Part shown: in pieces, positions 42,789 through 55,409 of the stretch
How positions within the stretch are numbered: the first letter of the stretch is position 1
How the letters are laid out: every line of letters starts with the position of its first letter
Assembly: GCA_964415615.1 (NCBI GenBank)
Contig: CAYQAW010000001.1
Location: forward strand, 40,593 to 104,592
Reading direction: 5' to 3'
DNA from: an uncultured Gammaproteobacteria bacterium
GTDB lineage: Bacteria > Patescibacteriota > Microgenomatia > Daviesbacterales > UBA10151
Length of the DNA stretch: 64,000 bases
The notes under the pieces: generated by a model
What the model saw: the letters and a program-made list of their open reading frames with translations, nothing else
What the model was told of the DNA's origin: nothing
Databases searched by the model: none
Translations under genes and position numbers: made by a program

Positions 42789-43205
42789 TTATTGCAAGCT
42801 TCTTAAATACTGTAAAAATCTTGCCGGAGTTGTTACTACGATCTTCAATTCTTGGATAATTTTATCAATCTTAAAATCCTTTGTATTATACGAAAGAAGG
42901 TATTTTGCCTTTGCTTTCTTCACACCAGCAATTATGTGAACATCGTCTAAATCCAAAGTATAATTTTTGAAGCTTTTTTTTACTTCTTTTAATTGAACAA
43001 CATTTAATTTTTCTTTGACTACTTCTGCTAATTTATCTTTATTAAGCCCTAACCGGTCGCATACCTGCTCTAATTCTTCTATGGATTTATTTGAAACAAA
43101 AGATTGTAGATCAGTTTCATGGATAATGAAATATGCTGCACCTTTATCAGATATCAACGAAGAGATGATCACATCGGAGTCTAGAAAAACTTTTTTTCTT
43201 TTCAC
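42789..43205 (-). CDS. PIN-domain toxin (VapC-like)
   Basis: 138 aa. N-terminus KVFLDSDVIISSL and C-terminus DLDDVHIIAGVKKAKAKYLLSYNTKDF are present. The acidic-residue layout fits a PIN fold. Confidence 0.6.
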   Translation of the reverse strand: MKRKKVFLDSDVIISSLISDKGAAYFIIHETDLQSFVSNKSIEELEQVCDRLGLNKDKLAEVVKEKLNVVQLKEVKKSFKNYTLDLDDVHIIAGVKKAKAKYLLSYNTKDFKIDKIIQELKIVVTTPARFLQYLRSLQ

Positions 43206-43468
43206 AGCTTTGATCTTACTCGGGAGAGTTCTCTGTGTATTTTAGGAATTTTTTTTAAATCTTCTTTCTCTGCTTTTTGCAAATCTTCATCCAGTCCACT
43301 AAAAATAAAGGATATCGAGCTTTGGGGAATACGGTAAACTTTACCGATTTTTTTAGCCACGATTTCACCACGGCTGATCAAATCATAAACCGTATTTTTA
43401 CTAAGCTGCAACATTTCAGCCACTTGCTCAGGAGTATATACTCTAGGCAAATTTTGATTACTAAACAT
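43202..43468 (-). CDS. helix-turn-helix (excisionase/MerR-like) antitoxin partner of the PIN toxin
   Basis: 88 aa. YTPEQVAEMLQLSKNTVYDLISRGEIVAKKIGKVYRI is an excisionase-type HTH. Its last codons overlap the toxin gene by 4 nt. Confidence 0.55.
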   Translation of the reverse strand: MFSNQNLPRVYTPEQVAEMLQLSKNTVYDLISRGEIVAKKIGKVYRIPQSSISFIFSGLDEDLQKAEKEDLKKIPKIHRELSRVRSKL

Positions 43469-43598: not shown

Positions 43599-43913
43599 AT
43601 GAAAAAAGTTATACTGGTTATTTTCATTATTTTACTAGTTGGATACCTCTGCACTCAAAAAGAGGATATACAATCTTTGTGTAATTTACCTTACCATACC
43701 ACCGTAGAACAATGTTCAAATGGTGATATAATTATTGATCGTGGAGCTATTAATTATGATGGCACTGAAACTTATTTAGATAAAAATGGATTTTTTCTTT
43801 ACTCACGAGGTGGCTGGGGAGCATACCGGGAAAGTATATTATATAAGCTTAGAAAATCATTTAATAATCCGATCGGATGCGATACTAAAGAATTAACAAA
43901 TAAATGTAGTTAA
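43599..43913 (+). CDS. small exported Cys-containing protein (hypothetical)
   Basis: 104 aa with an N-terminal signal/TM ([15 protein letters not shown]) and 5 further Cys. Its 3' end overlaps the fusA stop by 4 nt on the opposite strand. Confidence 0.45.
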
Positions 43914-46048
43914 TGTTCTACTCTACCAGTAAAGCCTGAGGTTTCTATAATCTTTTGAGTAATATTACTTGGAACTGGTTCATAATGATCTGCTTCCATA
44001 TAATAAGTGGCTCTACCCTGAGACATACTTCTTATAGCTGTTGCATATCCATGCATTTCTGCTAGTGGCACTAAAGCCAAAACCACTCTGGCATTTCCAC
44101 TGGTTTCGGAAGAAAGGATTTGAGCTCTTTTTGAAGACAAATCACCAATAATCTCTCCTAAAAATTCCTCAGGGGTGGTAACCTCCACCTTCATTATTGG
44201 CTCAAGCAAAATCATATCTGCTTTTTTGGCTGCCTCAGACAAGCCTAAAGAAGCTGCAATTTTAAATGCTATCTCAGATGAATCAACATCATGGAATGAT
44301 CCATCATAAACTGTAACTTTAATATCTGTCACAGGGAATCCAGCCAAAATTCCAGTATCTTCTTTTTCAATAACTCCTTTTTCAATGGGAGGAATAAATT
44401 CTCTAGGAATTGCTCCACCCACAATTGCTGAGACAAATTCCCTACCCTGTCCGCGGGGCAAAGGTTCAATCTTGAGCAAACAATGGCCATATTGACCACG
44501 TCCACCTGTTTGTCTAATGTATTTACCCTCACCCTCTGCATATTTGGTAATAGTTTCTTTATAGGCAACTTGTGGTTGACCAACATTTGCCTCCAACTTA
44601 AACTCTCTTTTCATCCTATCTACCAGGATTTCAAGCTGCAGCTCACCCATACCGGCAATAATAGTTTGTCCTGTATCAGCGTCAGATCTAACTCTAAAAG
44701 TTGGATCTTCCTCAGCTAGTCTTTGCAGGGCAAACCCCAATTTTTCCTGATCAGATTTTGTTTTTGGCTCAATTGCCAAAGAAATAACTGGATCAGGAAA
44801 AGAGATAGATTCTAAAATAACAGGAGCAGTTCCATCACATAAGGTATTCCCAGTTATAGTATCTTTAAGTCCTACTGCAGCCACAATTTCCCCAGCCAAA
44901 GCCTGATCAATCTCTTCCCTGTCATTGGCATGCATCAAAAGAAGCCTCCCTACTCTTTCATTTAATTGCTTGGTGGAATTATAAACATAAGAACCACTCT
45001 TTAAAGTTCCTGAATAAACCCTAATGTAAGTTAATTTTCCAACATGAGGATCAACTTGAATTTTAAATGCTAAAGCAGCTAAAGGCGCAGCAGGATCACC
45101 CTTTCTTTCTTCAGCTTCCCCTGTTTGCGGATTTATTCCACTTGTAACATACACATCCTGAGGTGAAGGAAGATATTCAACAACAGCATCAAGCATTGGT
45201 TGAACACCTTTGTTTCTAAGAGAAGATCCAGCAAAAACTGGCACAATTTTACTCCCAATCACAGCCTTTCTTAAAGCTTTTTTGAGTTCTGTGACTGTAA
45301 TTTCAGTTCCGTTGAGATACTTTTCCATCAACACATCATCAGAACCTGCAATTTCCTCTACCAGTTTTTCCCTGGCAACTTTAACCTCATCTGCCATATC
45401 AGCAGGAACTTCTGTCTCACTGAATTTAGCGCCTGTTTGATCGCCTTCCCAAATTAGAGCCTTTTGAGTTAGTAAATCTACTACTCCTTTAAAATCATTT
45501 TCTTTGCCAATAGGTAAGTTATAAGCTATAGCATTAGCGCCTAGCCTGTCTCGAGCAGACTGAATAGTAGTGGCAAAATCTGCTCCCACCACATCCATTT
45601 TGTTGGAAAAAGCGATTAAAGGAACGCTATATTTATTGGCTTGTCTCCACACTGTTTCTGTTTGAGATTGTACCCCAGAGGAGGAATCTAAAACAATTAC
45701 TGCTCCATCCAAAACCCGCAGGGATCTTTCTACTTCTGCAGTAAAATCAACATGCCCTGGGGTATCAATTAAATTAATTCTTATTTCATTTCCTTCAAAA
45801 AGTCCTTTTTTAACTGTCCAAAAAGCAGTAATGGCTGCAGAAACAATGGTAATCCCACGTTCGCGCTCCTGCTCCATCCAGTCAGTAACAGTAGTTCCCT
45901 CATCAATATTTCCAATTTTATAAGTTCTACCTGTATAAAACAGGATTCTTTCTGTAGTAGTTGTTTTACCAGCATCAATATGGGCTATTATGCCTATATT
46001 ACGGATTCTATCAAGTGGGAAGTCCCTTTTAGTCTTTTGTATTGCCAT
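43910..46048 (-). CDS. fusA: elongation factor G
   Basis: 712 aa. [26 protein letters not shown]... Confidence 0.97.
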
Positions 46049-46049
46049 T

Positions 46050-46271
46050 TTATCTTTTTTCTAAATCTCTTATTATCTTTTTTACCTCTTCAATTCTAAC
46101 TCTGGTTGTATCTGCATCTTCTATAGCCATAGTATAAGCTGCATTCTCGGATAAATCACCTTCAGCAGCAGCAGCGCCCTTTTTCGCCAAAATAATCTTC
46201 AGATCTTCTTCAAGCTGCGCTAGATTATCTTTCCACATCTTCAATTTTTCTTCTCTTAATTTATTATTCAT
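46050..46271 (-). CDS. GreA/GreB N-terminal coiled-coil domain-only protein (73 aa)
   Basis: [73 protein letters not shown] aligns with the GreA N-terminal domain, including the tip motif GDLSENAAY (GreA GDLKENAEY). The FKBP-like C-terminal domain is not encoded. The GGGGAGGGG Shine-Dalgarno sits 4 nt upstream of the ATG. The ORF track extends 26 codons further upstream into hairpin sequence. Confidence 0.55.
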
Positions 46272-46313
46272 AATGAACCCCTCCCCGCAGCAAGCTGACG
46301 GGGTATTCTGGTT

Positions 46314-46346
46314 CAAAAATAAAAAACCTCCCTCAAGCTGGGAGGC
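46314..46346 (-). terminator. rho-independent terminator upstream of the GreA-N gene
   Basis: The minus strand reads CCUCCC-AGCUUGA-GGGAGG followed by UUUUUUAUUUUU. Confidence 0.55.
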
Positions 46347-46370
46347 CACAAGCAGATATTATACAATGAA

Positions 46371-46574
46371 TCAGTCTACATTTCCAGCAGCAATAGCAAT
46401 ACGGTCAGCTCTGATTATATTTACAGGATCTATTGCTCTAGATAAAATTGCCGCTGAAATAGGATCCATGCGATTAAAAGCATCAAGTCTATCTCCAACA
46501 TCAGGTCCGCTCAGTTTTCCCACTACTTTTACTAGATCTATTACTGGTCTGAAAACAAGATTTTCTACTGTCAT
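46371..46574 (-). CDS. small hypothetical protein (67 aa)
   Basis: The ORF has non-repetitive composition and is followed by the terminator at 46314-46346. There is no clear RBS and I recognise no family. Confidence 0.3.
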   Translation of the reverse strand: MTVENLVFRPVIDLVKVVGKLSGPDVGDRLDAFNRMDPISAAILSRAIDPVNIIRADRIAIAAGNVD

Positions 46575-46667
46575 ATATTAATATTACCACTTCTGTTCTA
46601 CTGGATTACCGCTATCTACATATTCCATACTATATATTATATACTATTAGGCCTATTCTTAAACTAA

Positions 46668-46961
46668 TTATCTTGGGGTAAAATGGAGCTCGACTTTTAG
46701 ATCTAATGCGTCTGCCAGTCTTTTGATAAGTGATAAAGAAGGTCTGGCATTAGCATTTTCTAACCTGGAAATAACTGCTTGGCCAGTACCCATTCTTTTG
46801 GCCAACTCTTCCTGAGAAATTTTCTTCTTAACCCTGGCATCAATTATGGCTTGTATAATAGCAAATTCAGGCTGTAAATCCTCATAAGCTTTTTTCACCT
46901 TTGGATTTTGAAAGAGTTCTCGTTTCAATTCTTCAGTTGTATAATACCTTGGTTTGTTCAT
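46668..46961 (-). CDS. XRE-family HTH antitoxin (HigA-like)
   Basis: 97 aa. ISQEELAKRMGTGQAVISRLENANARPSLSLIKRLADALDLKVELHF is a Cro/C1-type HTH. It overlaps the upstream toxin-like ORF by 4 nt. Confidence 0.65.
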   Translation of the reverse strand: MNKPRYYTTEELKRELFQNPKVKKAYEDLQPEFAIIQAIIDARVKKKISQEELAKRMGTGQAVISRLENANARPSLSLIKRLADALDLKVELHFTPR

Positions 46962-47259
46962 ATTTTATATTCCTCCAAACGCTTCCTTGCAGTTTTTATC
47001 TCCTGTCGAGGAGTTTTCTGACTTTTTTTCTTAAATGCACACACTACAATCATAGCCGACTCGGCTTTACCTAAAAGTAATCGAATAGATCCAGGTCGCA
47101 GTTCCCATAAATTACTATCTAGCTTCTTTAAATATTGACTTGGCAACCTAAACCCATTCTCCTCAAATAACTCAATATACCCTTGAGCTCGTCCTTGATC
47201 TATTTCAGACAGGATGCTAAAAATTCCTTAACTCTCTTATCAGTAATTACTTTCAACAT
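46958..47259 (-). pseudogene. Gp49-like (HigB/RelE-superfamily) toxin gene disrupted by a frameshift in a T5 run
   Basis: Frame 1 reads MLKVITDKRVKEFLASCLK*. A second frame continues ...SILSEIDQGRAQGYIELFEENGFRLPSQYLKKLDSNLWELRPGSIRLLLGKAESAMIVVCAFKKKSQKTPRQEIKTARKRLEEYKI. Joined, the two frames match the Gp49-like toxin family (YIDLLEEFGPRL...LYELR...IVLLHGFxKKTQKTPxxEI). The shift maps to the AAAAA run at 47219-47223 (T5 on the coding strand). Confidence 0.55.
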
Positions 47260-47351
47260 AATTTTATGACAAATTTATCATAATTACAAGTGGTAAAATC
47301 GTTATCTAATTAGAGGGTAACCCAAATATATACCGAAGTCAAGAGAGAAAT

Positions 47352-47828
47352 TTACCAACGGAAGTGACTGAAGGCCCTATTGGCTTGGGCTGTTTTTTGA
47401 GTATCGTCTTTCTTCTTAATAGCAAGTCCTGTACCATTTGCAGCATCCATCAGCTCTGCTGCCAGTTTTTTATCAAATGAATGATATTCTTTATTGGATT
47501 TGGATTTTGCCCCAGCTAAAATCCACCTTATAGCCAAGGCTTCTTTTCTGTCACCACGGACTTCAACTGGTACCTGATATGATGCTCCTCCAACCCTCCT
47601 AGGTCTTACCTCCATTTTGGGAACAACATTTGCTATGGCTTTTTCAAAAACAGACAAAGGCTCCTGCTTGCTTTGCTCTTTTATTGTCTCAAGAGCTTGA
47701 TAAACTACTTTTTCTGCAATGGTTTTTTTGCCGGAAATCATTAGTTTATTAATAAATCTAGTTATTATCTTTGATCCATAAATTGGATCTGGGGCTAAAA
47801 TTTTTTTTGAGGCTTTTTTGCTTCTCAT
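47352..47828 (-). CDS. rpsG: 30S ribosomal protein S7
   Basis: 158 aa. MRSKKASKKILAPDPIYGSKIITRFINKLMISGKKTIAEK. Confidence 0.93.
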   Translation of the reverse strand: MRSKKASKKILAPDPIYGSKIITRFINKLMISGKKTIAEKVVYQALETIKEQSKQEPLSVFEKAIANVVPKMEVRPRRVGGASYQVPVEVRGDRKEALAIRWILAGAKSKSNKEYHSFDKKLAAELMDAANGTGLAIKKKDDTQKTAQANRAFSHFRW

Positions 47829-48309: not shown

Positions 48310-51300
48310 CTAATTATCTACCTTTGCCCTCTCGTAACTTGTTGGAATCAAACGCCCAATTATAACATTTTCTTTGAGTCCTATTAATTTGTCATCTTTA
48401 CCAGACATCGCAGCATCTGAAAGTATTGATGTAGTTTCTTGGAATGAAGCTGCAGATAAGAAACTTTCTGTTTGCAAAGAAGCTCTAGTTATTCCTAATA
48501 TAACCACCTCTGCTGTGGCTGGTTCACCACCGCTTGCCAAAACCCGTCTATTTTCCTCTTCAAAACGGAGTTTGTCAATAATTTCACCAGGAAGCAAGTT
48601 AGTATCACCCTGGGTTTCTACTCTGACTTTATCAGACATCTTCCTGACAATCACCTCAAAATACTTCTCATTAATAGGCACACCCTGAGATTCATAAACA
48701 GATCTTACTTCATCAACTATGTAGCGTTGTGCAGCCTTCAAACCTTGAATTCTCAAAATTTCTTTGACATCCACATGCCCTGAAGCCAGCACTGTCCCAG
48801 CATCAATCAGTTGTCCTTCTTCTACTAGAAGGGCTGCAGTAGCAGGAATAATGTATTCCCTTTCTTCGTGTGGCTTTTGGGTAGTTTTAACCCTAACCCT
48901 TATCCCCAATTCAGTCTCAACGACTGAAACTTTACCAGCAATCTCAGACATTGGTGATGCAACTTTAGGGGTCCTGGCTTCAAATAACTCTTCTACTCTT
49001 GGTAAACCTTGGGTAATATCTAATCCGATAATCCCTCCTGTGTGGAAAGTACGCATAGTAAGCTGTGTGCCTGGCTCACCGATAGCTTGAGCAGCCACTA
49101 CTCCAACAGGGGTGCCAATTTTAACCAGTTGTCTAGTAGTCAAATCAAAACCATAACAAGCACTACAAATTCCATAACGGGCCTCACAAGTCAAAGGAGA
49201 ACGAGCTGATACTTTTACTACCCCTGCTTTTAGAATTTGAGTTATCGCCACTTCTGCTAGGATCGCACCCTTTTTGATAATTACTTTCCTGCTTTTAGGC
49301 TCTAATATATTCTCTGCAACAACTCTTCCCAGTAGCTTCTCTCTGGCGGTGGTAAAAACATCCTTTAAGATATCAAATTCCAAAAACAGTTCAGTTGCGC
49401 AATCTTCCATCCTGATAATAACATCATGAGCAACATCTACCAACCTTCTGGTCAAGTATCCTGCATCAGCTGTTTTCAAGGCTTTATCTGCTACACCTTT
49501 TCTGGCACCTCTGGCTGAAGTGAAGTATTCAAACACAGATAAACCTTGTCTGTAATTGGATTTCGTAGGCAATTCCACAATCTTACCGGTTGGATCAGTA
49601 GACAAACCCCGCATGGCAGAAAGTTGCTTTGCCTGATCTCTTGAACCTCTAGCGCCTGCTTCAACCATCATTCTGATAGGGTTTTTCATACCCAGATATT
49701 CCCAGGTAGCATTTGCCAACTCTTCTGTCACTTTAATCCAGACCATTTGTGAAAGCTGTGATTTTTCTTGTGGAGTAATTAAACCTTTGGCAGTATTTGC
49801 TTCAATTTTCTCGATTTCCTTTATAGCTCTATCCAAATAAGCCTGTTTATCAGATACAACTTTTGCATCAAAGATAGAAATTGAAATACCGGCAATAGTT
49901 GCCCCCCAGAAGCCAATAGTCTTAATATTATCTATCAGCTCTGTTGCCTTTTCCTTACCTAAAGTTTCCATTGCCCGCAGGATGATGTCACGGATAGTAA
50001 GCCCTTTAATAACTGAATTTATAAATTGCATCTCAGTAGGCAAAACTTGATTAAAAAGTATTCTACCTACCGATGTTTCTATAACTTCACCATTAATCCT
50101 GGTTTGGATTTTTTGTTGAATCCCAATTTTGCCTAAAGTATAAGCCCTAACTGCATCTTCTATGGGTGCAAAGAAGTGCAGTTTCTCACCTTCTGCAACA
50201 TCCTCAAACGAAGTCAAAAAATAACATCCCAAAGCCATTTCCCTATTTGGCACAGTCACTGGCTGAGCATTGGCTGGACTAAAAATATTTTCTCTTGCCA
50301 TCATTAAATTCTTTGCTTCCTCTTGGGCTTTCCCAGATAAAGGCACATGAACTGCCATCTGATCTCCATCAAAATCAGCATTAAATCCTGCGCAAATACA
50401 AGGATGAATAGCAATGGCATTACCATCAACCAGTATTGGGAAAAATGCTTGAATCCCTAATCTATGCAGTGTAGGAGCCCTGTTGATCAGAATTGGATGC
50501 CCTGTAATGATTTCCTCTAAAATATCCCAAACCTCAGAAGACCGAAGCTCCAAAACATTTTTTGCGCCTTTAACATTAGATGCCAAACCTCTGGCAATAA
50601 CTTCCCGCAAAACAAACGGCTTGAACATTTCAAGAGCCATTTCTTTTGGTAACCCGACTTGATCTAGTTTTAATTTTGATCCAACCACGATAACTGATCT
50701 TCCAGAATAATCTACCCTTTTGCCCAATAAATTCTGTCTGAATCTTCCCTGCTTACCCCGTAACATATCTGAGAGGGAACGGAGAATATGAGTAGTAGCA
50801 GGACCTCCCCGTCTTGAAGTCCTGGATGATGCATCTATCAAGCTATCAACAGCTTCTTGTAGCATTCTTTTTTCATTCCGCAAAATTATTTCTGGAGCAC
50901 CCAGATTAATTAGCCTGTTTAAGCGGTTATTTCTATTAATTACTCTTCTGTAAAGATCGTTTAAATCTGAGGTAGCAAATCTTCCTCCTGGCAGTTGCAC
51001 CATAGGTCGAAGGTCTGGGGGTAAAACTGGTAAAACCCGCAGTACTAACCATGCAGCAGAGATGCCAGAAGAACGCATTCCTTCAATCACCCGAAGTCTT
51101 TTTGTAGCCTTGATATGTTTTTGCCCTGTGGACTTTCTGACCTCTTCCCTCAAAGCTGCAGCCATTTTATCCAAATCTAGCTTTTGTAGAACTTCCAAAA
51201 ATGCTTCTGCTCCCATTCCTACCTGAAGAAAATCTGAAACTCCATATTCGAAAAGCTTTGAATATTCATCCTCTGATAGAAGTTTTAAAGCCACAACAGA

Positions 51301-52002
51301 TTTAACTAAATCAGATACAGCTTTAAAAATTCCTTCCAACTGACCAATTTCTACAACTAAATTATCTCTCAACTTTTGGATTTCATGTCTACCTTTTAAC
51401 TCTTTTTCCTGTGCCTCAAGTTCAAATTTTTCCTTTTCCAGTTTCTTTTTAAGACCAGTTACGTCCTTTTTGAGCTGACTTTCAAAATCTTTGATCGTCT
51501 TTTCCAAATTTTCTTTTGCTTGGGAAATTTTTGTTTGTAAATCTTTCTCTAATTTTTCCAGAGCTGCAGTTTTACCAGAGGGATCAATACTAATCACAAT
51601 ATAGGAAGCAAAATATATTACTGCTTCCAAATTTTTGGGTGAAATATCCAGTATCAGGGATAATTTGGAAGGCGCACCTTTGACAAACCAGCTATGAGCC
51701 ACAGGAGAGGCAAGATTAATATGGCCCATTCTTTCTCTTCTGACCTTGCTTTGGGTAACCTCAACTCCGCACTTATCACAAATTACTCCCCGGAATCTAA
51801 TTCTTTTATATTTACCGCAGTAACATTCATAATCTTTAGTAGGCCCAAAGATATTTTCAGAAAACAGTCCATCTTTTTCAGCTTTTAAAGTTCTATAATT
51901 GATAGTTTCTGGTTTTGTAACCTCACCAAAAGACCAATTCCTTATTTGCTCAGGAGAAGCAACTGTGAGTCTTAAACTTTCAAAATCTACTAAATCGTTC
52001 AT
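48310..52002 (-). CDS. rpoC: DNA-directed RNA polymerase subunit beta'
   Basis: 1230 aa. An N-terminal zinc finger and NADFDGDQM catalytic loop are present. Confidence 0.97.
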
Positions 52003-55000
52003 TCTGCCTCCTTTACTTCAAAAGAACTGTCAGGAGCTCCCAGCTCTTCTATACTAGCAGTTGATTTCATATCTAGTGCTTCTTCAAGCTGCGCTATTTC
52101 AGTAGTCACTTCTTTACTCTTCTCAGCCTCAGCGACCTCAGTCACTATTTTTGCTCCCAGTGTTTCAACATAAAGTCCCAAGGCTTGCAATTCTTTAACC
52201 AACACCTTAAAAGATTCAGGAATTAAAGCCTGGGGAATATCAATTCCCTTAACAATTGCCTCAAAAGCTTTAGCCCGTCCTACTACATCATCAGATTTTA
52301 TAGTTAACATTTCTTGTAAGATATGCGCAGCTCCATATGCCTCCAAAGCCCACACTTCCATCTCTCCTAATCTTTGCCCTCCCATTTGAGCTTTTCCTCC
52401 CAAAGGCTGTTGAGTAACCAACGAATAAGGACCGGTGGAACGGGCATGAATTTTTTCCTCCACCATGTGAATTAATTTCAGGATATAATTTATACCCACC
52501 ACTACACTGCTTCCAAAAGGTTCCCCTGTTCTTCCGTCAAAAAGTTGTGTCTTACCGTCAGTTGAATACCCTGCTCTTTTTAATTCTTCCATTAATCTCT
52601 CTTCAGGAATCTTTTCAAAAACTGGCGCAGCTATTTTATAACCCAATTGCTTAGCCGCAAATGCCCAGTGTGTTTCTAGTAATTGTCCTAAGTTCATCCT
52701 GGAAAGAACTGATAGAGGAGAGATAATAATATCTATCGGAGTTCCATCAGCCATGTGTGGCATATCTGCAATCGGCACAATTTTGGAAATAACTCCTTTA
52801 TTACCATGGCGGCCTGCCAGTTTATCTCCGGCAGTCACTTTTCGGAGTTGAGCAACTTTTACTTTAATTCTCTGAAGAGTTCCTGTATCAAGCTCGTCTC
52901 CGTCATCTCGGGAAAGTATCTGCACTCCAATGACAGTACCCCGCTCACCATGAGGAATACGTAATGATGTATCTCTGACTTCCTTGGCTTTTTCTCCAAA
53001 AATAGCCCTAAGTAATCTTTCTTCAGCAGTCAACTCTGTTTCACCTTTGGGCTGAACTTTACCAATCAATATATCATTTGGCCTCACTTCTGCCCCAACT
53101 CTAACAATTCCTTTCTCGTCCAAATTAACTAGCGCTTCTTCAGACACATTAGGAATATCCGAAGTTAACTCTTCTGGTCCAAGCTTGGTTTCTACAACAT
53201 CGACTTCATATTCTTCAATATGAATTGAAGTTAACGCATCATCTTTTACTAACCTGTCTGAGATAACAATAGCATCTTCATAACCTAAACCATCAAAGCT
53301 CATATAGGCAATAAGTAAATTTTGACCTAAAGCCAACTCCCCGTTCTCACAAGCTGCGCCATCAATCAAAAGATCGCCTTTTTTCACCTTTTCATCTACC
53401 CCAACTACTGGTGTTTGCGAATAACAAGTTCCTTGAGGAGAGTGGACAAATTTCTTGATTTCGTACTTGATTTCATCCTGCTTAGTTTTCAAAATGAGCT
53501 TTTTCCCATCTACATATTTTATAGTTCCATCTTCCGGAGCTCTAACAACCCTACCCATATTATCAGCTACAATTCTCTCCATACCTGTACCTGAAATTGG
53601 AGCTGTAGGTCTGAGTAAAGGCACTGCCTGACACTGCATTTGGCTACCCATCAAAGCTCTGTTTGCATCATCATTGGCCAAAAATGGAATCAAAGAGGCA
53701 GATGTACCAAAAATCTGCTGGGGTGAAATATCAATTAAGGAAATATCTTTTGCTGTTCCTTCAAAGAAATTACCCTGATATCGGGTTGGCACTCTTTCAT
53801 CTAGAATGAAACCCTTCTCATCGGTATTTACAGTAGCCTCAGTAATATGAAAGTCTTCCTCATCATCGCCTGTAAAATAAATAACTTCATCAGTCACTTG
53901 TGGCTTACCTTTTTGTAGAACTACTTTTCTATAAGGAGTCTCTAAAAACCCATACTCATTTATCCTGGCATAAAGCGCCAGATATGTAACTAGTCCAATA
54001 TTTTGACCTTCAGGAGACCTGATAGGATCAATCCTGCCATATTGAGAGTGATTAATATCGCGTACAGAAAAAGATGCCCTATCTCTGGTAATACCGCCTG
54101 CTCCCATCACAGAAAGTCTCCTTAAATGATCAAGTTCAGATAAAGGATTTACTTGATCTAAAATAGAAGACAGTTGAGAGGAACGGAAAAATTCATTAAT
54201 AGCAGCAATCACTGGCTTGGCATTAATTAAACCACCTGGAGTGACTTCCTGATCAGCTGCTGTCAAACTCATTCTTTCTTTAATAATACGCTCAAGTCTT
54301 AAAACTCCAATTCTGAAAGCATTTTGCTGAACCAACTCACCGGCGCATCTAACACGGCGGTTTGCCAAATGATCTATATCATCCAGTTTACCCTCACCTT
54401 TACTTAATTTAATTAAATATTTTAAAGTAGCAATAATATCTTCTTTGGTTAAAATCCAATTATCGGGGGTATTTGGTATATTCAGACCAAGCCTTTTATT
54501 TATTTTATATCTGCCTACTTTAATTAAGTTGTAACGCCTGGAATTAAAAAACATTCCATCAAGTAGAGCTTTTGCATTATCTAATACTACCGGATCTCCT
54601 GGACGCATCTTTCTAAAAATCTCCAGAAGCGCCTCGTCAGTGTTGGCAGTTGGATCTTTGACTAGAGTTGCATCGATAAATTTGTCTTCTCCATTATCAA
54701 CGTCTTTGAAAAGCTCTACGATTGATTCATTGTCAGAAAATCCTAGAGCCCGGAGTAATGTGGTTGCAGCGAATTTTCTTCTCCTGTCAATCTTAGCTGT
54801 CAAAACTCCACCGCGGGTTATAGAAAACTCCAGCCATGAACCACGGTAAGGACGGATCTCTGCAGAAAATAATCTCCTTCCGGTAATTGGATCATCAGAG
54901 GCTTGGAAAAACACTCCAGGAGAACGGACTAACTGATTAATGATAACTCTCTCAACCCCATTTACGATAAAAGTACCTTTATCTGTCATTTGGGGAATAT

Positions 55001-55340
55001 CACCCAGAAACACATCCTGTTTATATCTTTGTCCTGTTTGCTTATTAATCAGGATTGCTTCAATTTTTAGAGGAGCATCATAAGTAACGCCTTTTTCACG
55101 GGCGATTTCTGCTGTATTTTTAGATTTACCAAAATAAAAGGACCCTAGCTGCAGGGTCCAATTCTTTCCTGTAAAATCTTCCACTGGGGAGATTTCTTCA
55201 AGGACTTCACCAATTCCAGTTTTAAGAAACCAATTATATGAATCAAGTTGAATTTGAATTAAATTAAGTTCTGGAACCAACGCTGGTGCTTTGCTCCAAT
55301 ATTTACGGTTATCTTTTGTATTAGATACGTTCAGTGACAT
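51999..55340 (-). CDS. rpoB: DNA-directed RNA polymerase subunit beta
   Basis: 1113 aa with conserved beta-subunit motifs throughout. It overlaps rpoC by 4 nt. Confidence 0.97.
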   Translation of the reverse strand: MSLNVSNTKDNRKYWSKAPALVPELNLIQIQLDSYNWFLKTGIGEVLEEISPVEDFTGKNWTLQLGSFYFGKSKNTAEIAREKGVTYDAPLKIEAILINKQTGQRYKQDVFLGDIPQMTDKGTFIVNGVERVIINQLVRSPGVFFQASDDPITGRRLFSAEIRPYRGSWLEFSITRGGVLTAKIDRRRKFAATTLLRALGFSDNESIVELFKDVDNGEDKFIDATLVKDPTANTDEALLEIFRKMRPGDPVVLDNAKALLDGMFFNSRRYNLIKVGRYKINKRLGLNIPNTPDNWILTKEDIIATLKYLIKLSKGEGKLDDIDHLANRRVRCAGELVQQNAFRIGVLRLERIIKERMSLTAADQEVTPGGLINAKPVIAAINEFFRSSQLSSILDQVNPLSELDHLRRLSVMGAGGITRDRASFSVRDINHSQYGRIDPIRSPEGQNIGLVTYLALYARINEYGFLETPYRKVVLQKGKPQVTDEVIYFTGDDEEDFHITEATVNTDEKGFILDERVPTRYQGNFFEGTAKDISLIDISPQQIFGTSASLIPFLANDDANRALMGSQMQCQAVPLLRPTAPISGTGMERIVADNMGRVVRAPEDGTIKYVDGKKLILKTKQDEIKYEIKKFVHSPQGTCYSQTPVVGVDEKVKKGDLLIDGAACENGELALGQNLLIAYMSFDGLGYEDAIVISDRLVKDDALTSIHIEEYEVDVVETKLGPEELTSDIPNVSEEALVNLDEKGIVRVGAEVRPNDILIGKVQPKGETELTAEERLLRAIFGEKAKEVRDTSLRIPHGERGTVIGVQILSRDDGDELDTGTLQRIKVKVAQLRKVTAGDKLAGRHGNKGVISKIVPIADMPHMADGTPIDIIISPLSVLSRMNLGQLLETHWAFAAKQLGYKIAAPVFEKIPEERLMEELKRAGYSTDGKTQLFDGRTGEPFGSSVVVGINYILKLIHMVEEKIHARSTGPYSLVTQQPLGGKAQMGGQRLGEMEVWALEAYGAAHILQEMLTIKSDDVVGRAKAFEAIVKGIDIPQALIPESFKVLVKELQALGLYVETLGAKIVTEVAEAEKSKEVTTEIAQLEEALDMKSTASIEELGAPDSSFEVKEAE

Positions 55341-55369: not shown

Positions 55370-55409
55370 AAAAGGAAGCATACGTTATCGTACGCCTCCG
55401 TTTTTTTTA
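55370..55409. terminator. hairpin plus U-run immediately upstream of rpoB (candidate terminator or attenuator)
   Basis: GGAAGCATACG-TTATC-GTACGCCTCC-GTTTTTTTT on the plus strand. The complementary hairpin on the minus strand (GGAGGCGUACG/CGUAUGCUUCC) is followed by UUUUGUUG. Confidence 0.4.

Follow-up and report, generated by a model that had tools for sequence, protein, structure and literature searches.

In a 64,000-nucleotide (nt) stretch of contig CAYQAW010000001.1 (assembly GCA_964415615.1, positions 40,593 to 104,592; hereafter designated the window), we analyzed a gene of 73 codons that directly precedes fusA in the str operon and encodes the N-terminal coiled coil of GreA and GreB alone. 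The label greN is used here for this open reading frame (ORF), and GreN for its protein. The genes in this part of the window are arranged in the order rpoB, rpoC, rpsL, rpsG, a Gp49/HigB-like toxin, an HTH_3 antitoxin, a 67-residue ORF, greN, fusA, an insert containing PIN and HTH genes, and tuf; the β' and β subunits of RNA polymerase are encoded at 48310-52002 and 51999-55340, respectively. The features in and immediately around greN are as follows.

46050-46271, minus strand: greN, 73 residues, the GreA/GreB N-terminal coiled coil alone; start codon ATG at 46271-46269 and stop codon TAA at 46052-46050.
43910-46048, minus strand: fusA, an ORF for elongation factor G (EF-G, 712 residues) downstream of greN; Pfam EF-G domains are on record for the orthologous loci.
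46046-46052, minus strand: the greN-fusA junction TAA-A-ATG, with the greN stop at 46052-46050, the fusA start at 46048-46046 and 1 nt between them.
46278-46286, minus strand: the Shine-Dalgarno (SD) sequence of greN, GGGGAGGGG, 6 nt upstream of the ATG.
46274-46315, minus strand: a second stem-loop, UGAACC..CCCCG-U-CAG-CUUG-CUG-CGGGG..GGUUCA, in which CCCCG (46303-46299) pairs with CGGGG (46287-46283); it overlaps the SD sequence.
46315-46347, minus strand: the leader hairpin, GGCCUCCC-AGCUUGA-GGGAGGUU followed by U6AU5, resembling an intrinsic terminator (stem-loop at 46347-46325, U-run at 46326-46315).
46358-46386, minus strand: a promoter-like site, TGGAAA-17-TATAAT, with a transcript start predicted at about 46349-46353, the hairpin following after 2-6 nt.

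The longest mechanically called ORF begins at a GTG codon at 46349 and spans the leader hairpins; the ATG given above is the start common to all homologs.

The product of greN matched the Pfam family GreA_GreB_N (PF03449) with 32.2 bits (E 1.2e-7; gathering score, 24.5) over residues 6-69, which correspond to profile positions 4-68 of 71. In searches of the PDB, the single GreN sequence gave no match by phmmer and a family profile was required; this profile gave matches, in register and gap-free around the tip, to Escherichia coli GreA (1grj_A; E 1.8e-6), a GreA chimera of Thermus thermophilus and GreB. Moreover, hhalign of the greN family against a GreA/GreB alignment gave a probability of 96.7% (E 4.3e-10). 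Among 19 aligned family members, G38, D39 and E42 are invariant and N43 is nearly so, and these four residues align with G40, D41, E44 and N45 of E. coli GreA and also with their equivalents in GreB. The tip motif, G-D-L-S-E-N-A-A-Y, is of the GreA type, as may be seen from the EEGDLRENAGY of T. thermophilus GreA in 4wqt, and K9 and W13, located in a KLKMW motif, are invariant residues specific to the greN family. The AlphaFold2 model of GreN (predicted local distance difference test score, 89) consists of a helix (residues 3-35), a tip loop (36-43) carrying G38-D39-L-S-E42-N43, and a second helix (44-72). Its top Foldseek matches were the GreA structures 9a7t_B and 1grj, with root-mean-square deviations of 1.2-1.3 Å; the E-values did not reach significance, which is unsurprising for a fold as simple as a bare helical hairpin.

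The second half of a Gre factor is missing from GreN. Pfam detected no C-terminal domain (GreA_GreB, PF01272) in the protein, which ends at residue 73, and there is no room for such a domain because fusA begins 1 nt past the greN stop. The zf-dskA_traR domain was likewise not found in GreN by Pfam searches at E-values up to 1, and the sequence contains no cysteine. With half of the protein absent, GreN falls far under the NCBIfam equivalog cut-offs for full-length GreA and GreB (TIGR01462, 33.6 versus 139 bits; NF001263, 31.8 versus 145 bits). GreN is the GreA/GreB N-terminal coiled coil with its tip intact and without the C-terminal anchoring domain. The original prediction, made from the letters of this stretch, had described just such a coiled-coil-only protein, had equated its acidic tip with the D41/E44 region of GreA and had remarked on the missing C-terminal domain; the above-threshold PF03449 score, the invariance of D39 and E42 and the lack of any PF01272 match agree with it on all of these points.

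The family is populated well beyond the window. A word-indexed search returned 346 homolog clusters at 90% identity, and the best 120 of these 346 all encode proteins of 72-103 residues, nearly all of 72-89 residues, with PF03449 as the only domain. When 1.84 billion cluster representatives were searched exhaustively with HMMER, 21 matches had E-values up to 0.001, all of them short proteins save one of 1569 residues, which is likely spurious. No full-length GreA with a greN-type N-terminal domain was found among these 21 matches, and the greN family is therefore a separate, narrow clade rather than a recent truncation of a local greA. When one genome per GTDB species was scanned, a greN relative was present in 104 species genomes; 80 species loci were kept, the titles of which are Daviesbacteria, Microgenomates, Patescibacteria or obvious placeholders. 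GreN of the window is 100% identical to HYT74_00620 of Candidatus Daviesbacteria (GCA_016180885.1, contig JACPAI010000002.1), a metagenome-assembled genome of the Microgenomates within the candidate phyla radiation (CPR). Many GTDB records that contain a typical CPR str-operon locus bear the title 'uncultured Gammaproteobacteria bacterium isolate binchicken_...' (L010, L013, L018-L021 and others among the loci), which is evidently a placeholder and not taxonomy.

The gene is under purifying selection, with a median ratio of nonsynonymous to synonymous substitution rates (dN/dS) of 0.20 over 638 unsaturated pairs. Median identity to the protein of the window is 69% for GreN, 74% for S7, 86% for EF-G and 94% for EF-Tu, the conservation of GreN being similar to that of S7. 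These data bear on the possibility that GreN is a decaying greA remnant or an assembly or frameshift artefact, as its half-sized domain architecture and its NCBIfam GreA score far under the cut-off might suggest. A frameshift-truncated greA had also been named at the outset as a finding that could overturn the coiled-coil-only assignment. However, the listed homologs are of near-uniform length (72-89 residues) in hundreds of independent assemblies, the gene recurs in 104 species and is maintained by selection, and the fusA start follows its stop after 1 nt. The conservation data thus refute the remnant or artefact reading, which we regard as scarcely credible, and greN is a genuine stand-alone gene.

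Several departures from the typical family member were recorded. The short proteins P0133, P0134, P0138 and P0139 have the tip deleted or replaced (for example, by EGDLTEEDVE or NLGDDSAL) and may be decaying copies or assembly errors. Tandem paralogs consisting only of the GreA N-terminal domain are located in L088 (5001-5480), in L091 (7835-8246) and in the greN-fusA gaps of L064 and L076, and their tips include a GDW(H/Q/E)ENAEY type and a degenerate VGYLSEN. Paralogs situated away from fusA were observed in four divergent loci, L081, L082, L087 and L088 (L071 and L082 belong to one genome). A homolog search with the divergent member P0135 returned 3 proteins only, and the sole match in viral contigs was a canonical GreA of 153 residues from an unrelated organism.

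The genomic position of greN is fixed on one side only. fusA is located directly downstream of greN in 76 of the 80 species loci, and in the majority of these 76 the gap measures -1 to +5 nt, the stop and start codons either overlapping as TAATG or lying 1-5 nt apart; the same linkage is found in the P0135 branch, which is 40% identical. In contrast, the separation of the greN start from the rpsG stop varies among species, from 23 nt up to 4.4 kb (L002-L088). Thus, greN is attached to fusA, and the interval between rpsG and greN looks like an insertion hot spot in the str operon. The original prediction had presented the gene as inserted between rpsG and fusA, which is correct in that it precedes fusA but misses that it is tied to this neighbor, three other ORFs also lying between rpsG and greN; the downstream sequence, which had been taken for the fusA stop, is instead the fusA start (ATG at 46048). 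In L010, L014 and L033, the greN-fusA gaps are 118-141 nt long and contain AT-rich repeats of a TTTTCAAT-like unit, which may be small repeat elements.

Translationally coupled genes typically show the spacing seen at the greN-fusA junction. The final greN codons of many species make up a G-rich stretch resembling an SD sequence for fusA; in the window, these codons read AAAAGATAA and no recognisable SD sequence precedes the fusA start, so that coupling may matter more here. Such an intimate junction, near-obligatory over 40-86% identity while the rpsG linkage is loose, together with a fusA that has no SD sequence of its own in the window, would also suit a GreN recruited to translation, with EF-G or the ribosome as its possible target, or a greN that might be mainly an upstream cistron through whose translation EF-G synthesis is set. 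We judge this role very improbable, because the most constrained residues of GreN are those that coordinate Mg2+ in the active site of RNA polymerase (RNAP) in GreA and GreB, and because a mere coupling cistron would not keep a dN/dS of 0.2 and a fold that Pfam can recognise. Furthermore, the paralogs of the four divergent loci mentioned above sit away from fusA, and rpoB and rpoC lie two genes upstream.

The second conserved feature of the locus is the leader of greN. The family promoter has the form TTGACT-17-TAATAT (consensus, TTGACTTT..N..TAATAT), and the +1 position expected for it, 7 nt after the -10 element, is a conserved G. A GC-rich hairpin with a T-run follows 8-10 nt past this promoter in 70 of the 74 promoter-bearing loci, as compared with a mean of 1.56 and a maximum of 6 in shuffles, where detection was made sequence by sequence and only the mononucleotide content was kept in shuffling. 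These hairpins comprise about 40 different stems, nearly all with a C-rich 5' arm and a G-rich 3' arm. Over the ~0.8 Mb of these loci, such a hairpin accompanies 2 of 31 further promoters of the TTGACT type, and both exceptions are in the greN-fusA region, one being a longer greN leader and the other lying between greN and fusA. Loci in which greN starts 23-24 nt after rpsG have neither promoter nor hairpin. L085 carries a second TTGACT promoter with hairpin and T-run between greN and fusA (963-1040), besides the one upstream of greN. In the window, the leader hairpin is the top-ranked terminator-like site listed in a 5-kb scan, with the joint-highest number of stem pairs and the most G-C pairs, and its 5' arm mimics the anti-SD sequence; no Rfam match was obtained in 45900-47400 at E-values up to 1.

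Since the promoter precedes the hairpin in nearly all loci that have an intergenic region, the hairpin and U-run appear to constitute a promoter-proximal leader element at the 5' end of the greN-fusA transcript, predicted to lie 2-4 nt from that end. What had been noted as a clean terminator upstream of greN is thus a real and conserved structure, but more than a terminator of the preceding gene. In the window itself, the -35 element is degenerate (TGGAAA, the variant also seen in L018) because the end of the upstream 67-residue ORF overlaps it, and the hairpin there may therefore serve more to terminate transcription of that ORF.

Extra sequence between the leader hairpin and the ATG places the window in a minority of loci. 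The predicted fold of its second stem-loop has an energy of -19.4 kcal/mol (z -3.0), with 1 of 200 shuffles being as stable, and the GGAGG core of the SD sequence has a predicted pairing probability of ~0.49. The stem-loop is absent from L089 and L090, relatives that are 90-92% identical. Across the 74 leaders, 33 contain a recognisable SD sequence and 41 have no clear one. In 18 species (about one quarter), the 3' arm of the leader hairpin (GGGAGG), 9-14 nt from the ATG, is the sole SD-like element and is ~100% paired, and in species with a separate downstream SD sequence the pairing of the latter is variable. SD sequestration is accordingly not the conserved property of these leaders; the promoter-adjacent hairpin with its U-run is. 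The regulated translation of greN that had been read from the SD-overlapping hairpin of the window remains weakly supported, in that the hairpin is stable and does overlap the SD sequence but is specific to the window and leaves the SD core about half paired.

From these observations we propose, with middling confidence, that GreN is a minimal, anchor-less secondary-channel factor of the Gre type, probably stimulating cleavage, which is co-expressed with fusA from its own promoter and leader. Given a GreA-type catalytic tip on a coiled coil as long as the GreA finger, a secondary-channel cleavage factor is the simplest reading. GreN would insert into RNAP's secondary channel, where D39 and E42 would help to position the second catalytic Mg2+ for cleavage of backtracked RNA, as in GreA and GreB. 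For this stimulation GreN would have no globular C-terminal domain, by which Gre factors normally dock on the β' rim helices; with the docking domain missing, the affinity must presumably come from the coiled coil, the family-specific residues or the concentration of GreN. The isolated N-terminal domain of GreA reportedly keeps a weak cleavage-stimulating activity.

On the expression side of the proposal, greN and fusA would be co-transcribed from a dedicated sigma-70-type promoter, with the start 2-4 nt before the hairpin. The leader hairpin and U-run would probably block read-through from the upstream rpoBC-rpsLG genes and the variable inserts, and probably also attenuate or stabilise the greN-fusA transcript. 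In many species the same hairpin is predicted to mask the greN SD sequence, and translation of EF-G would be tied to the end of greN by the stop/start overlap. A function of the hairpin as a terminator insulating greN-fusA from upstream transcription is plausible. A function as a 5'-terminal stabiliser of the greN-fusA mRNA is also plausible, because the contig also encodes RNase J, ~4-6 kb past the end of the window (L093, 4668-6362). The exonuclease activity of RNase J is blocked by 5'-terminal hairpins.

Several points weigh against this proposal. Acidic tips are also present in Gfh1 and DksA, which do not cleave, so that conservation of the tip is not proof of cleavage. The fully paired sole SD sequence of the 18 species argues for low, not high, synthesis of GreN. 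A terminator placed right after the promoter of fusA, an essential and highly expressed gene, is hard to reconcile with efficient termination. Alignment of 47 leader hairpins with MAFFT followed by RNAalifold gave no consensus structure, the stems being aligned out of register, and because of these register problems the evidence for a conserved structure consists of the hairpin counts against shuffles. The described secondary-channel factors all bind RNAP via a globular domain (review PMC4598747), and without one the binding of GreN may be too weak. Finally, a canonical GreA probably coexists with greN, which may then be a modulator and not the working cleavage factor, because full-length GreA is about as widespread in the CPR as EF-Ts (2035 and 1983 genomes, respectively; Meheust 2019, Suppl. 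Data 1).

Within the DNA at hand, no GreA C-terminal domain was detected by tblastn and HMM searches, which used three sequences of the GreA/GreB C-terminal domain, in the window or the ~0.8 Mb of related loci, and no PF01272 gene appeared after the contig was extended by 10 kb on each side (84 kb in total). A synthetic consensus GreA query matched Firmicutes GreAs only. The near-universality of full-length GreA in the CPR makes a second factor plausible, and GreN might in that case modulate or inhibit the secondary channel by competition, like Gfh1, Rnk or DksA, limiting the access of GreA or of substrate without stimulating cleavage itself. Gre factors face competition from known paralogs such as Gfh1, Rnk and Rv3788 (PMC4598747), and tandem and dispersed paralogs of GreN exist, some with degenerate tips. 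Competition, however, requires affinity, for which the anchoring domain is missing, and a pure plug would not need the catalytic-type GDLSENAAY tip that is invariant in the fusA-linked copies; we therefore consider a purely modulatory GreN somewhat unlikely. It is unlikely, too, that the Daviesbacteria have no full-length GreA at all, with GreN as their sole cleavage factor and the leader as a Gre-sensing attenuator that ties proofreading to translation-factor synthesis. If this were true, the Gre coiled coil would suffice in vivo, either via a new mode of docking on RNAP or by mass action arising from co-expression with EF-G.

The same searches bear on the idea of a split Gre factor in which GreN forms one half and the anchor is supplied by a separate protein with the GreA C-terminal domain or by a lineage-specific feature of β'. 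A new interface for such a partner could be formed by the invariant residues K9 and W13 together with the conserved base of the helical hairpin. Nevertheless, no GreA C-terminal domain is encoded in the window, the 84 kb of contig or the ~0.8 Mb of related loci, and W13 by its heptad spacing looks like a core residue and not a surface one, which makes a split factor quite improbable. We retain the anchor-less secondary-channel factor as the most likely reading of GreN.

The remaining features of the neighborhood are listed below.

46668-47146, minus strand: a Gp49/HigB-like toxin (62 residues, PF05973) and an HTH_3 antitoxin (97 residues), overlapping by 4 nt, between rpsG and greN.
46371-46574, minus strand: the 67-residue ORF, with no Pfam or NCBIfam match, directly upstream of the greN leader.
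42789-43468, minus strand: a toxin-antitoxin-like pair of PIN_3 (138 residues) and HTH_17 (88 residues) proteins, between fusA and tuf together with several small unannotated ORFs.
55374-55399, minus strand: a terminator-like hairpin, GGAGGCGTAC-GATAAC-GTATGCTTCC with a T-run, ~35 nt upstream of the rpoB start.

The toxin-antitoxin pair between rpsG and greN is also found in L019, at the same place and with 85-90% identity. Homologs of the 67-residue ORF occupy the same position in L018 (66% identity), L033 and L025, and unrelated small ORFs are present in others such as L005 and L089.

In a literature search, we found no paper on the greN family, on Gre proteins without the C-terminal domain or on Gre factors of the CPR, and databases annotate the domain only, automatically, the JGI name being GreA/GreB family factor. 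The characterised bacterial secondary-channel factors (GreA, GreB, Gfh1, Rnk, DksA and TraR) all possess a globular module that holds RNAP, and GreN is a finger without such an anchor, maintained by selection in more than 100 species. It thereby poses the testable question of whether the catalytic coiled coil is sufficient alone or has found another mode of binding. The answer would define the minimal requirements of Gre function and could yield a 73-residue probe of backtracking. The greN-fusA pair with its promoter-proximal hairpin and U-run is also a compact candidate regulatory unit, through which transcription quality control would be tied to translation-factor supply in organisms with very small genomes. 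Its interest would be clearly higher if complete genomes were to lack a canonical GreA.

Among the known systems closest to GreN, GreA and GreB (1grj; GreB, 2p4v and 6ri7) have a homologous N-terminal coiled coil of equal length with an identical tip (G-D-x-x-E-N-x-x-Y), and the GreN model superposes on GreA at 1.2-1.3 Å. GreN differs from both in the absence of the globular RNAP-binding C-terminal domain, in K9 and W13 of the KLKMW motif, which are invariant in the GreN family only, and in its location in the str operon, where its expression would be fused to that of fusA.

The small secondary-channel-type coiled-coil paralogs Gfh1 (Thermus), Rnk and Rv3788 resemble GreN; they occur alongside GreA, possibly as its competitors (PMC4598747). 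Unlike GreN, they keep the C-terminal globular domain. The tip of Gfh1 also differs from the GreA motif, which GreN keeps. DksA and TraR, like Gre-type fingers, have an acidic-tipped coiled coil that reaches the RNAP active site by way of the secondary channel, and TraR exemplifies a shortened factor that still works. Both are nevertheless unrelated to GreN in sequence and carry a Zn-finger globular domain of their own, matching the lack of zf-dskA_traR in GreN.

A parallel to the leader is provided by E. coli greA, where a strong promoter is followed by the leader intrinsic terminator GraL, at which two-thirds of the transcripts stop, and where GreA autoregulates only if it is catalytically active and the leader is present in cis (PMC2836576, PMC6829880). 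The greN leader is alike in that a Gre-type gene is preceded by a promoter and, within a few tens of nt after this promoter, by a GC-rich stem with a U-run. It differs in having no sequence or Rfam similarity to GraL, in its stem of 6-10 bp, as compared with 11 bp in GraL, which starts at about +4, in a 3' arm that often doubles as the SD sequence, and in a unit that also holds fusA; termination in the greN leader is predicted only.

The E. coli str operon, rpsL-rpsG-fusA-tufA, shows the same gene order, and the expression of its fusA depends on the preceding cistron. In E. coli, this dependence is brought about by S7-mediated coupled translation. The Daviesbacteria differ in that the cistron before fusA is greN, usually equipped with its own promoter and leader hairpin, and rpsG lies 23 nt to 4.4 kb away.

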